Positions 27,332 through 44,137 of a DNA stretch of 44,479 nucleotides are shown here, in pieces. Each line of letters opens with the position of its first letter. Within the stretch, counting starts at the first letter, position 1. The notes beneath the pieces are model-generated. The model ran no database searches, had not been told where the DNA came from, and saw nothing but the letters and a program-made list of their open reading frames with translations. Source of the DNA: a virus (taxonomy: Duplodnaviria; Heunggongvirae; Uroviricota; Caudoviricetes); the IMG/VR virus record IMGVR_UViG_2526164662_000049. The stretch is one strand, 5' to 3'. The translations under genes and the position numbers were made by a program.

Positions 27332-27490
27332 AATGACGCCCTCTGGTGGTTTCTTAATAACTCACCACCGACGACGCCAATCGTCTGGTGGTGAACTGTG
27401 CAGGGTTGGCGTAACCGGGAAACCGACCGGCGCGGATCTCTCCGCCCCCACACAGCCCACCATAATTCAGATGTGCGCGTGCATACGACA

Positions 27491-27514
27491 ATAAAAAACA
27501 CGCTCGCGGCGTGT
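27491..27514 (-). terminator. tR'-like terminator downstream of late promoter
   Basis: minus-strand hairpin acacgc-cgcga-gcgtgt followed by TTTTTTATTG. Confidence 0.45.
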
Positions 27515-27575
27515 ATCTGTCGCGGTCTCTATCCAGGACGCCAATCCCGACGCCAGATTTTGCTGGCGCGTGAGG

Positions 27576-27605
27576 AATATAGCCCCGGATAACAGATTGA
27601 GTCAA
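27576..27605 (-). promoter_or_regulatory. late promoter pR'-like (TTGACT-N18-TATATT) immediately after Q
   Basis: sigma70-like elements read on minus strand directly downstream of Q stop, as in lambdoid phages. Confidence 0.45.
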
Positions 27606-29601: not shown

Positions 29602-29757
29602 TTACTCCTCAGGTTCGTAAGCTGTGAAGACAGCGACCTCCGTCTGGCCGGTTCGGATTCGTACCTCGCAGAGGTCTTTCCTCGTTACCAGTGCCGTCAC
29701 TATGACGGTTAAACAGATGACGATCAGGGCGATTAACATCGCCTTTTGCTGCTTCAT
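29602..29757 (-). CDS. hokD: Hok-family type I toxin (HokD/RelF-like)
   Basis: 51 aa MKQQKAMLIALIVICLTVIVTALVTRKDLCEVRIRTGQTEVAVFTAYEPEE; terminator hairpin downstream at 29513-29535. Confidence 0.8.
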   Translation of the reverse strand: MKQQKAMLIALIVICLTVIVTALVTRKDLCEVRIRTGQTEVAVFTAYEPEE

Positions 29758-30003
29758 AGCCTGCTTCTCCTTGCCTTTCGGCACGTAAGAGGCTAACCTA
29801 CATTTGTGAGACATAGATTGGGCCTCAGATTAATGTTAAGCGTCTTGCAGGACGCGTAATGTTAACTGGGGCTTTTCTCTATCTGCCTTTTGGTGTTCAT
29901 GCCTGAGACAGATAGCCTCAAGCACCCGCAGCAATTCTACTTAACTCTCCTTTTCCCGCAAACCGTTTTTACCCGATATGGGAATTCCCATATCGTAATG
30001 AAT

Positions 30004-36433: not shown

Positions 36434-36829
36434 ACCATTTATTGGATTAATTCAATATTCTTGCTGTAGGGGTATAGCCGAGGCCACCAAAGCCCGGAGG
36501 TGGTGAAATAAAACCGGGCACAACACGAAGGCGCATTTCCGGTATCCATAAAGAGTCGGTCTTGTCTGTTAAATTTAAATGGTGGGAGTGCGCCTCCGGT
36601 TGTAAATAACGACATTGCTATGTGTAGTCTTTGGCGGCATCAGTTCTACTCCGTGGCTGCCCTGCCGCCCCTTTTTAAAGTGAATTTTGTGATGCGGTGA
36701 ATGCGGCTAAGCGCACGCGGCACAGTTAAAAGCATCAGTGTTATGGGTGGATTATCCGGCGTTAATTGTTAACTGGTTAACGTCACCTGGAGGCACCAGG
36801 CACCGCATCGACAAAATTCATTTGTAAAA

Positions 36830-41939: not shown

Positions 41940-42134
41940 ATGCGGTATGAAAAAGTCAAACCATGTCCGTTTTGTGGTTGTCCATCAGTAACGGTGAAAG
42001 CCATTTCAGGATATTACCGCGCAAAGTGTAACGGATGCGAATCCCGAACTGGCTATAGTGGAAGTGAAAAAGAAGCACTCGAAAGATGGAATAAACGAAC
42101 TACTGGAAATAATAATGGAGGTGTTCATGTATAA
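41940..42134 (+). CDS. ralR: Lar/RalR restriction-alleviation protein (type I toxin RalR-like)
   Basis: 64 aa MRYEKVKPCPFCGCPSVTVKAISGYYRAKCNGCESRTGY... Cys4 motif; matches recalled Rac RalR. Confidence 0.7.
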   Translation: MRYEKVKPCPFCGCPSVTVKAISGYYRAKCNGCESRTGYSGSEKEALERWNKRTTGNNNGGVHV

Positions 42135-42315
42135 AATTACTGCCACTATTGAAAAGGAAGGTGGCACTCCTACTAACTGGACAAGGTACTCAAAAACAAA
42201 ATTAACCAAATCAGAATGCGAAAAAATGCTCTCAGGGAAAAAAGAAGCAGGCGTTTCCAGAGAGCAGAAAGTAAAGCTGATAAATTTTAATTGCGAGAAG
42301 CTTCTGTCCTCGTGA
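42127..42315 (+). CDS. ydaC: YdaC-like protein (DUF1187-like)
   Basis: 62 aa MYKITATIEKEGGTPTNWTRY...; start overlaps ralR stop; Rac-like order. Confidence 0.5.
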   Translation: MYKITATIEKEGGTPTNWTRYSKTKLTKSECEKMLSGKKEAGVSREQKVKLINFNCEKLLSS

Positions 42316-42415: not shown

Positions 42416-42703
42416 ATGGCAATGAATCTTGTGACACTCAAAACGTGGGGAAAACTCAGATATCCGGATAACCCACCATCAATATCAACGCTGAGACGAT
42501 GGGCAAGGAATGGAAACATTTATCCTGCACCTGAACTACACGGGAGGAGTTACAGAGTGGTTCCGGAGGCTTTCTATATCAACCCAAATAAGGTTGATAC
42601 CGATATAACACACCATCAGCCTAATGGGCGACAAGGGAGAGACAGTCCGTTACTGGAGAAGTTAAAACATGCAGCGGAAAAAATACGATCCCAATTTGCC
42701 TAA
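42416..42703 (+). CDS. xis: excisionase-like protein
   Basis: 95 aa ORF immediately upstream of and overlapping integrase start. Confidence 0.55.
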   Translation: MAMNLVTLKTWGKLRYPDNPPSISTLRRWARNGNIYPAPELHGRSYRVVPEAFYINPNKVDTDITHHQPNGRQGRDSPLLEKLKHAAEKIRSQFA

Positions 42704-43745
42704 AAACTTAACATATCGAAGGAGGGACAAAGCATATTACTGGCGCAACCCTCTGACGAAAGAAGAATTTACACTAGGTAAAATTTCAAGAAGAGATGCA
42801 GTAGCGCAGGCAATTGAAGCAAATCATTATATATACAAAAACTACTCTCCTGCTGCCTTAATTGAAAAGCTTAAAGGGTTCGACTCATTTACTATGGCAG
42901 ACTGGATTGAACGTTACAAAACGATTCTTATAAGGAGAAAAGTGTCCAGAAATACTTATAAAATTCGGGTAAATCAACTGGAGACAATAAAAGAAAAATT
43001 GGGAGGGATTTTACTGACAGAAATAACAACTCGCCATATTGCCGAGTTTCTTGATTTGTGGATTGAAGGAGGGAAAAACACAATGGCAGGATCAATGCGT
43101 TCTGTGTTGTCTGATATGTTTCGCGAGGCCATTGTTGAAGGACGTATATCTCAAAATCCAGTAACGCCAACAAGAGCACCGAAAATAGTAGTTACAAGAG
43201 AACGACTGAAACTAAAGACATACAACTGCATCAGGGAGGCAGCAGATCAACTTCCGGCATGGTTCCCATTAGCTATGGATTTAGCCCTTGTAACAGGACA
43301 ACGTCGCGAAGACATAACGAATATGCGGTTCAGTGATATTTATGATGATCGTCTCCACATCAGGCAAATTAAGACAGGAATGATGATTGCTATCCCCCTG
43401 TCACTCAGCCTTCCTGTCGCTGGTCTACGGCTTGGTACAGTAGTTGAACGGTGCCGCCTGGTAAGCCGGGGAGATTATCTAATCAGTGCCGGGATTAGAA
43501 AAAACAGCCCTGACGGCAGCATTCACCCGGATGGCCTGACAAAAAAATTTGTCGCAGCCAGAAAATTAACAGGTATCCAGTTCAGTGAAAACCCACCAAC
43601 TTTTCACGAGATCAGAAGTCTGGCTGGACGATTGTACAAAGAAACATGTGGAGAAGAATTTGCCCAGCGCCTACTTGGTCACACATCGGAGAAGACAACA
43701 AAAATGTATCTTGATGAGCGAGAAAAAACGTACTTACTGCTCTGA
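42669..43745 (+). CDS. int: lambda-family tyrosine integrase
   Basis: 358 aa; collinear similarity to lambda Int incl. HELRSL and LLGH..xxxY C-terminal motifs. Confidence 0.85.
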
Positions 43746-43865
43746 TTTTAACGTAAATGGATTGTTAAATGTGTTTTGGTTGTGATATAACCAAAAAAGA
43801 CCGGAATACAGAAATTCGAGTAAATTTCGGGGAATTTCGGGAAGACGTTTGCAACTGATTGATTT

Positions 43866-43900
43866 TAAATACAATTAAAAAAAGACCGAATACGATTCCT
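43866..43900. repeat. attR core region (sdsR 3' terminus reconstituted at prophage junction)
   Basis: aaaaaaagaccgaatacgattcctgtattcggtcc; direct repeat of 1067-1098; partial third copy at 43793-43815. Confidence 0.5.
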
Positions 43901-43979
43901 GTATTCGGTCCAGGGAAATGGCTCTTGGGAGAGAGCCGTGCGCTAAAAGTTGGCATTAATGCAGGCTTAGTTGCCTTGC
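43877..43979 (-). ncRNA. sdsR: SdsR (RyeB) small RNA
   Basis: minus-strand sequence GCAAGGCAACUAAGCCUGCAUUAAUGCC... ending in terminator hairpin plus U-run; matches recalled E. coli SdsR. Confidence 0.8.
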
Positions 43980-44137
43980 CCTTTAAGAATAGATGACGAC
44001 GCCAGGTTTTCCAGTTTGCGTGCAAAATGGTCAATAAAAAGCGTGGTGGTCATCAGCTGAAATGTTAAAAACCGCCCGTTCTGGTGAAAGAACTGAGGCG
44101 GTTTTTTTATTGGAAATCAAAAGGCTATTTTAGGTAA

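Follow-up and report, generated by a model that had tools for sequence, protein, structure and literature searches.

Between the integrase gene of a lambdoid prophage and the bacterial small RNA (sRNA) gene sdsR lies a short region rich in repeats, and it raises the question of whether these repeats are relics of earlier insertions or parts of the attachment (att) site of the phage itself. The DNA analysed, referred to here as the window, is the whole 44,479-nucleotide stretch of virus record IMGVR_UViG_2526164662_000049. It is a segment of an Escherichia coli chromosome with a prophage of about 42.8 kb, which has pphA on one side and the sdsR (ryeB)/ryeA sRNA pair on the other. The region under study is the 130 bp from the stop codon of int to the 3′ end of sdsR. 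Our comparisons make it quite probable that positions 43793–43910 are the int-proximal arm and the core of the att site of a lambda-family temperate phage, located in the terminator hairpin of sdsR. This grade concerns the assignment to an attP arm that has arm-type sites; the role of an extra copy of a core half-site within the arm is graded separately below. The genes and sites at the two prophage ends are as follows.

42416–42703, plus strand: xis-like excisionase gene (Pfam PF07825 Exc, E = 6.5e-14).
42669–43745, plus strand: int, lambda-family tyrosine integrase with an N-terminal arm-DNA-binding domain (Pfam and structure alignment).
43743–43745, plus strand: stop codon of int, read from the sequence.
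43763–43791, plus strand: subclade-conserved blocks TGTTAAA (43763–43769) and TGTGATATAAC (43781–43791; TGTGRTATAA type).
43793–43809, plus strand: the extra or 'third' att copy, an A-run followed by GACCGGAATAC (43799–43809), a direct repeat of the arm-adjacent core half-site GACCGAATAC.
43811–43821, plus strand: putative arm-type unit 1, degenerate, GAAATTCGAGT (gaaattcgagt).
43822–43832, plus strand: putative arm-type unit 2, AAATTTCGGGG, with an exact match to AATTTCGGG.
43833–43842, plus strand: putative arm-type unit 3, AATTTCGGGA, with an exact match to AATTTCGGG.
43852–43864, minus strand: predicted integration host factor (IHF) site AATCAATCAGTTG, equivalent to lambda H′, a perfect match to WATCAANNNNTTR.
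43877–43910, plus strand: int-side att junction, with a phage-derived A-run (four-way comparison and terminator scan).
43884–43893, plus strand: phage-derived left stem arm GACCGAATAC of this junction.
43894–43900, plus strand: its loop GATTCCT, the likely overlap.
43901–43910, plus strand: its bacterial right arm GTATTCGGTC.
1075–1101, plus strand: pphA-side att junction, with bacterial left arm GACCGAACAC, loop GATTCCT and a degenerate phage half-site GTTTTCGTCA.
1184–1237, plus strand: distal (P-type) arm (alignment of five intact attP with the window; exact motif match).
1184–1205, plus strand: TAATGCATTCAATTAGTTACCA of this arm, conserved as TAATnnATTCAATTAGTTAYCA, IHF-like with one mismatch.
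1206–1216, plus strand: TTTTTTTCGAG, candidate site, conserved as TTTTTnCG.
1228–1237, plus strand: AAATTTCGGG, exact arm-type unit, conserved as nATTTCGRR.

The terminal genes of the prophage, both on the plus strand, are the xis-like open reading frame and int. In addition to the core-binding and catalytic domains, Int has an N-terminal arm-binding domain. The protein matches PF09003 (E = 2.1e-6), PF22022 (E = 4.7e-10) and PF00589 (E = 9.6e-17), and residues 8–353 align to residues 10–348 of lambda Int (structures 5j0n and 1z1g, E = 3.6e-72), with about 39% identity to the lambda protein; the N-domain aligns to structure 1kjk (E = 4e-4). A Xis-type directionality factor adjoins int. The 3′ end of its reading frame overlaps the start of int, as in lambda, and a xis-like gene is also located upstream of int in relatives L085–L088.

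The crossover was mapped by comparing attB, attP and both junctions of the window. The unoccupied attB (E. coli Nissle, L218) reads AAAAAGAGACCGAACACGATTCCTGTATTCGGTCC and the attP (phage pPE4) reads AAAAAAAGACCGAATACGATTCCTGTTTTCGTCAAC; the att copies of the prophage are located at 1062–1098 and 43871–43907. The pphA-side junction combines the G and C of attB with the phage right side, and the int-side junction combines the A and T of the phage with the bacterial right side. Because the junctions divide attB and phage bases there, the exchange is placed by the alignment within ACGATTCCTGT (43892–43902), which corresponds to the 7-nt loop GATTCCT of the sdsR terminator ± 2 nt. The C at position 1082 was considered as drift, and this was rejected; it is the native attB base of E. 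coli and helped to map the crossover. In agreement with this, in the attP of L082 identity to the common GTATTCGG-type right arm ends directly after GATTCCT, and L097 and L200 have the phage left arm GACCCAATAC in common and diverge beyond it. The 10-bp stem arms GACCGAATAC and GTATTCGGTC are placed like inverted core-type half-sites, on either side of a short overlap, of the same sequence in attP and attB, that would contain the crossover. Integrases that target tRNA genes use the anticodon stem-loop, and the terminator stem-loop core resembles such targets. By the lambda convention the int-side junction is attL (B-O-P′) and not attR, the label given to it by the sequence-only reading of this DNA.

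The three tandem units (43811–43842) have the invariant part WWTTTCG, and their TTCG cores are 11 and 10 bp apart. The string aatttcggg is found at 43823–43831 and 43833–43841. AATTTCGGG has three matches in the 44.5-kb window (1229, 43823 and 43833, with 0.56 expected), all on the plus strand and all in the att arms. Repeats of putative arm type are located in both arms away from the crossover, with the distal unit about 140–150 bp from the core, a distance comparable to that of lambda P1. The consensus WATCAANNNNTTR has only two matches in the whole window, and the one at 43852–43864 is the sole match near att. A distance of 39 bp separates its centre from that of the terminator loop (43897), and the motif points away from the core; a bending site of IHF type is predicted here between the arm sites and the core. 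In many relatives the IHF consensus has different N bases or the opposite orientation, and in some arms the motif is partial or an A/T-rich sequence takes its place.

In lambda, the N-domain of Int binds arm-type sites, the C-terminal domains bind core-type sites and bends made by IHF unite both (PMC4880445). We re-read lambda attP (J02459) with the window in hand. The centres of H′ (TATCAATTTGTTG) and of the core are 39 bp apart, and H′ faces outward; P′1–P′3 are three tandem units of about 10 bp, at about +53 to +83, and the stop codon of int overlaps P′3. The window's three tandem units span +55 to +86 from the crossover centre, and the two arm geometries agree to about 2 bp. The resemblance to the lambda P′ arm includes a homologous heterobivalent Int with Xis, three tandem arm-type sites of about 10-bp spacing by the 3′ end of int (in round figures +55 to +85), an outward-pointing IHF site 39 bp from the crossover centre and, as in lambda attP, one or two more arm-type sites about 120–150 bp out in the opposite arm. 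Unlike in lambda, the arm-type sequence is unrelated (WWTTTCG versus C/AAGTCACTAT), an sRNA terminator hairpin serves as the core, its 7-nt loop being the likely overlap, and a direct repeat of the core half-site is located beyond the third arm unit, where lambda has no such copy. A core-like 9-mer beyond lambda P′3 (CAATTTTGT) was considered and rejected, as it has the wrong orientation and is compatible with chance. Phage 21, HK022, HK97, Klebsiella ST13-OXA48phi12.4 and Burkholderia CB2a likewise have three tandem units of 10–12 bp, located 0–55 bp from the int stop (for example GTTTTGGGGAA three times in phage 21, and AATTTTGGnnG in CB2a). These phages differ in unit sequence and target, and an exact-repeat scan (≥8 nt) found no half-site copy between the int stop and the units.

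By analogy with lambda, the N-terminal domain of Int would bind the tandem units, a bend made by IHF would fold the arm back and let these Int molecules contact the core through their C-terminal domains, and Xis would confer directionality.

Relatives were gathered by integrase homology, by the DNA pattern of the tandem units in IMG/VR and by protein search of phage genomes; a single-protein search of genome contigs gave only two near-identical loci. The set contains 114 distinct arms, of which 35 are non-redundant, from prophages by sdsR/yebY in E. coli, Salmonella, Serratia, Yersinia and Pantoea hosts and from IMG/VR contigs. The tandem-unit pattern served to gather part of the set, and to that extent the units are found because they were searched for; neither the extra copy nor the spacer motif nor the core belonged to that pattern. 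All 35 arms have the same layout: the int stop, GRCCG(G)RRTAY, a linker of 1–6 nt, three units of WWTTTCG plus tail (five in L172), an A/T-rich spacer of about 40 nt, usually with an IHF-like motif, and AAAAA(A/G)AGACCGAATAC followed by GATTCCT. In 34 arms the majority-base fraction is 0.98–0.99 for the core and 0.94–0.97 for the unit cores (0.94 for the AATTCG part of unit 1, 0.97 for unit 2 and 0.95 for unit 3), 0.82 for the extra copy, 0.54 for the spacer and 0.45–0.47 for the unit tails. Five records contain an intact contiguous attP, with int-side arm, core and other arm, and all five have the whole block: PP818812 (L001, 97% identical), OK490361 (Salmonella phage ZC-S1_prp, L002, with int DNA 72% identical) and the IMG/VR contigs L044, L065 and L082. 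The int–att junction is present in about 228 of 5,426 complete E. coli genomes (about 4%), and the sdsR part in 5,426 of 5,426. These alignments show that the three tandem units, the distal unit and the IHF consensus are the phage's own and that they are conserved across genera.

The aatttcggg repeats are well supported as predicted arm-type Int sites of this lineage. The sequence-only reading had offered this identity as one of two options, and the conserved array, its recurrence in the distal arm, the lambda-like distances and the arm-binding N-domain of Int all speak for it. It had suggested a comparison with the attP of related phages, which places the block in the five intact attP, and had held that motifs found at chance frequency and not conserved would count against it; conservation in 35 of 35 arms and expected counts of 0.07 and 0.56 (for AAAAAAGACCG and AATTTCGGG) were found instead. 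The motifs it described are real and lie where it placed them, apart from the end of the partial copy, which is 43810 and not 43812. Its inventory was right in the two aatttcggg copies and the partial att copy, and missed the degenerate third unit, the fourth exact copy at 1228–1237 and the perfect IHF consensus.

The tails of the units are uniform within the array of one phage (GAGT, GGAC, GTGT, GATA or GGGA) and differ from the tail of the distal-arm unit of the same phage. Because the tails are alike within an array and unlike that of the distal unit, this uniformity points to slippage or unequal exchange in the array and not to recognition of the tail. In L172 (L172:751–893, minus strand) the array has grown to five tandem ATTTCGATAA units compared with three elsewhere. 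This is consistent with slippage, which would also explain the homogenisation of tails in each phage.

Two records in the set are unusual. PP818812.1 (L001, 'Actinobacillus phage vB_Apl-pPE4') is labelled as from A. pleuropneumoniae, yet its Int has 98% amino acid identity and its attP is specific for the enterobacterial sdsR terminator; with a region about 97% identical to that of the E. coli prophage studied here, the host label looks doubtful. In L097 (L097:1912–2035, minus strand) the integrase belongs to this family and its phage-side half-site, GACCCAATAC, is that of L200, with non-sdsR DNA beyond the junction. At the junction the sequence is GCATTCA GTATCCGACC, and a glyoxalase/FosA-like reading frame comes next; Rfam did not find SdsR at this junction, which may be a secondary or alternative attachment site.

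The extra copy of the core half-site is the part of the arm that departs from lambda. aaaaaagaccggaataca is read at 43793–43810, and the 11-mer AAAAAAGACCG has exactly two matches in 44,479 bp (43793 and 43878), with 0.07 expected; none of 100 shuffles reached two. The conserved portion is a 10–11-mer equal to the arm-adjacent half-site, with the consensus GRCCG(G)RRTAY in 35 of 35 non-redundant arms; the A-run is common but not universal (it is missing in L094, L099 and L091). The copy is fixed in position relative to unit 1 and not relative to int. In L132, L189 and the Flyfo phage, which have TAG-type stops, its first bases overlap the int stop codon; in Serratia and Yersinia (TAA) it directly adjoins the stop, and in E. 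coli it is located 48–54 bp downstream. The intervening blocks TGTTAAA and TGTGRTATAA are kept in E. coli-type arms and in relatives of 70–75% identity, and are absent from Serratia, Yersinia and Pantoea relatives, in which the int stop abuts the extra copy. In Flyfo Tbat2_3, with 50% Int identity, the 10-mer AGACCGAATA has one copy at the int stop codon and another in the core, 85 bp further downstream; the loop of this phage differs (CAATCCT). The exact-repeat scan (≥8 nt) found no copy of the core half-site in lambda, HK022, HK97, Hafnia Pocitis76, phage 21, Klebsiella phi12.4 or Burkholderia CB2a. On these comparisons the extra copy is neither a relic of a past insertion nor another att site; it is clade-specific and borne by the phage, and appears to be maintained across genera by purifying selection.

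Two other assignments of the extra copy were rejected. As an inverted arm-type unit, its conserved GRCC would fall where the tail of true units varies freely, and for this reason the copy is matched to the core half-site. As a pseudo-core or hairpin together with unit 1, only the invariant CGAAT/ATTCG is complementary and the half-sites stand nearer to each other, by about 5 bp, than those of the real core; the two elements show no covariation and no pairing by RNAalifold.

For the extra copy we favour, at somewhat less than an even chance, the role of an accessory core-type docking site for Int, adjoining arm unit 1. It would dock the C-terminal domain of the Int monomer whose N-domain sits on unit 1 and so aid loading of Int on the arm. 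We put forward with similar reserve, as a tentative model, that it acts as a fifth, core-type Int site in the P′-type arm, with one monomer bound bivalently in cis, nucleating loading or biasing integration versus excision. In L162 and L200 the extra copy and the core change in parallel, which is suggestive.

Several observations weigh against this reading of the arm and its extra copy. It is from homology, position and conservation that sites were assigned to the arm-type, core-type and IHF classes. The tandem units and the core half-site have only the 5-mer ATTCG in common, and its presence in both makes the site classes less distinct than those of lambda. The match of GACCGGAATAC to GACCGAATAC requires a 1-nt indel, as the window's copy has an additional G that is absent from the core. 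Covariation between extra copy and core is weak, with GACCGAGTAT extra copies also found with GACCGAATAC cores (L091, L103 and L197), and in L097 the extra copy does not co-vary with the core. The lambda arms have no core-type site, and no precedent was found for the role proposed for the extra copy.

Deletion between the repeats is seen in one relative. In L011 (IMGVR_UViG_2728369554_000022; L011:2262–2380, corresponding to window 43793–43877) an 85-bp deletion lies exactly between both AAAAAAGACCG repeats and takes out all three units and the IHF site, leaving int intact. This prophage should be unable to excise and is a candidate locked-in prophage. The deletion was not seen among the top matches in complete E. 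coli genomes, all of which have the undeleted two-piece form.

The other option of the sequence-only reading, stacked att-like remnants of repeated integration and excision, would make the partial copy a decayed junction of an earlier element left in the chromosome. Papers citing Balbontin et al. 2008 describe the 3′ end of sdsR/ryeB as a phage attachment site and a hot spot of repeated insertion in Salmonella (PMC7380047, PMC3333887), and the copy is imperfect by its indel. A chromosomal scar could not, however, come to lie between int and the arm sites of int, where the copy sits; it would fall outside them. The copy is also inside the attP of excised or circular phage (L001, L002, L044, L065 and L082), the window has just two junctions, both expected, and the copy is kept in every arm, down to 50% Int identity, next to a spacer that has diverged. 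None of the traits expected of a chromosomal remnant (absence from attP, a place outside the att arms, neutral decay) is seen, and we regard this origin as extremely improbable. A functionless relic of a single ancestral duplication or aberrant recombination, kept by hitch-hiking or by gene conversion from the core, is unlikely without being far-fetched. The copy is clade-specific and other lambda-family phages manage without it, its A-run part is missing from some arms, and the copies do recombine, as the L011 deletion shows. Against such a relic stands the conservation of the 10–11-bp element (0.82) compared with about 0.45–0.54 for the 3-nt unit tails and the 37-bp spacer, and its survival in rearranged contexts, whether overlapping, abutting or 48–54 bp from the int stop; moreover, a deletion-prone direct repeat should be selected against unless it is useful.

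An RNA-level element, either a back-up terminator for sdsR read-through into int or a pairing site for SdsR or RyeA, would draw on the minus strand of the copy, which resembles the sdsR terminator in its 3′ arm and U-tract (GTATTCCGGTCTTTTTT), with the plus strand lying within the 3′ untranslated region of int. Read-through transcripts of sdsR occur in K-12 (PMC6610125) and would run antisense into int in lysogens, and copies of the E. coli and Salmonella types are followed by a T-run on the minus strand. This T-run is absent in arms of the L132, L189 and L114 type, however, and the terminator scan finds only the genuine sdsR terminator (43911–43883). The copy has no upstream partner arm, RNAalifold (28 arms) pairs it with nothing, and a G+C-rich hairpin with a T-run is not seen at the copy; such a role is very unlikely. 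A phage promoter in place of the displaced ryeA promoter, formed by the conserved blocks and transcribing through the core into ryeA, is as hard to credit as the chromosomal remnant. The prophage does part ryeA from its promoter and first ~55 nt, and lysogeny by PhiW104 is reported, in a paper citing the original study, to alter the 5′ part and level of ryeA (PMC7380047); TGTGATATAAC resembles an extended −10 element, and TTTGCA-16-TACAAT (43848–43875) passes a consensus scan. The −7 base of TGTGRTATAAN, however, is C, G or A and never T, and the arms of Serratia, Yersinia and Pantoea retain the repeats but lack this block, so that TGTGATATAAC was rejected as an extended −10 promoter. The TACAAT hexamer is conserved in the E. 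coli type only, and a promoter would leave the three-unit array and the fourth copy in the other arm unexplained.

With an attP arm and core as the preferred reading of 43793–43910, integration bears directly on the two sRNA genes at the junction.

43877–43976, minus strand: SdsR_RyeB, the sdsR (ryeB) sRNA gene (Rfam RF00111, 118 bits).
43873–44017, plus strand: SraC_RyeA, the ryeA gene (Rfam).

In E. coli K-12 the promoter and transcription start of ryeA are upstream of the sdsR 3′ end (PMC6610125), and the primer sequences of that work place them at about 1016–1030 of the window. The prophage therefore separates ryeA from its own promoter and first ~55 nt, which are left at the pphA end, 42.8 kb away. 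A sigma-70-like TTTGCA-16-TACAAT (43848–43875, plus strand) is located just upstream of the int-side core and is not conserved outside the E. coli type; judged by its sequence, it could drive a truncated RyeA. In the lysogen, SdsR has a phage-supplied 3′ terminator stem arm and U-tract (43877–43910 compared with L218:251–300), with a U–A pair for the native U·G wobble, U7 for UCUCUUUUU and TCTTTTTTT for TCTCTTTTT.

The nearest described case is PhiW104 at the Salmonella ryeA/ryeB hot spot, for which Balbontin et al. 2008 (J Bacteriol 190:4075), as represented in citing papers, defined the core and the sRNA effect. PhiW104 uses the same target, the last 23 bp or so of ryeB/sdsR, internal to ryeA, and its lysogeny replaces the 5′ part of ryeA and alters the levels of both sRNAs (PMC7380047, PMC3333887). 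The phage-made terminator may contribute to the higher RyeB/SdsR level reported in PhiW104 lysogens. Salmonella prophages in our set (L002 and L062–L084) have 72–75% identical Int and the same arm layout. For this integrase lineage the literature, in which Balbontin et al. 2008 is covered through PMC7380047 and PMC3333887, yielded no account of arm-type sites, of an IHF site or of the extra half-site.

RNAalifold on the 28 arms predicts the sdsR terminator hairpin and otherwise only a weak, non-covarying hairpin within the tandem units. Two compensatory changes in the terminator hairpin, in L162 and L200, join the phage-made arm to the bacterial arm. At the int-side junctions of these two, the host stem variants ATACTCGGTC and GTATCGGGTC are met by a compensating base in the phage arm (GACCGAGTAC and GACCCAATAC, respectively). 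Because the phage arm bears the compensating base, these phages appear adapted to restore the host SdsR terminator.

Elsewhere in the prophage, Rfam matches regulatory RNAs at 27384–27582, 29752–29927, 36619–36670 and 42133–42311: C4 with its a1/b1 targets, isrK, sok, DicF and RalA (antitoxin of RalR).

The locus is an uncharacterised member of the well-known lambda-type attP architecture with one clade-specific half-site repeat at the outer end of the arm; in other respects its anatomy is what one would expect of such an attachment site. In place of 'att-like debris', a defined and testable attP map is available for a widespread integrase lineage. The map gives a minimal site for integration vectors at the sdsR locus and predicts locked-in prophages, such as the arm-deleted L011. 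It also poses a mechanistic question that the lambda paradigm does not answer, namely the role of a core-like half-site in the arm; if the docking model is true, bivalent docking in cis, which is not described for lambda, would be confined to the clade that has the sdsR terminator hairpin as its target. In integrating there, phages of this lineage rewrite the 3′ end of SdsR, a stress sRNA, and sever its antisense partner RyeA from the promoter of the latter.

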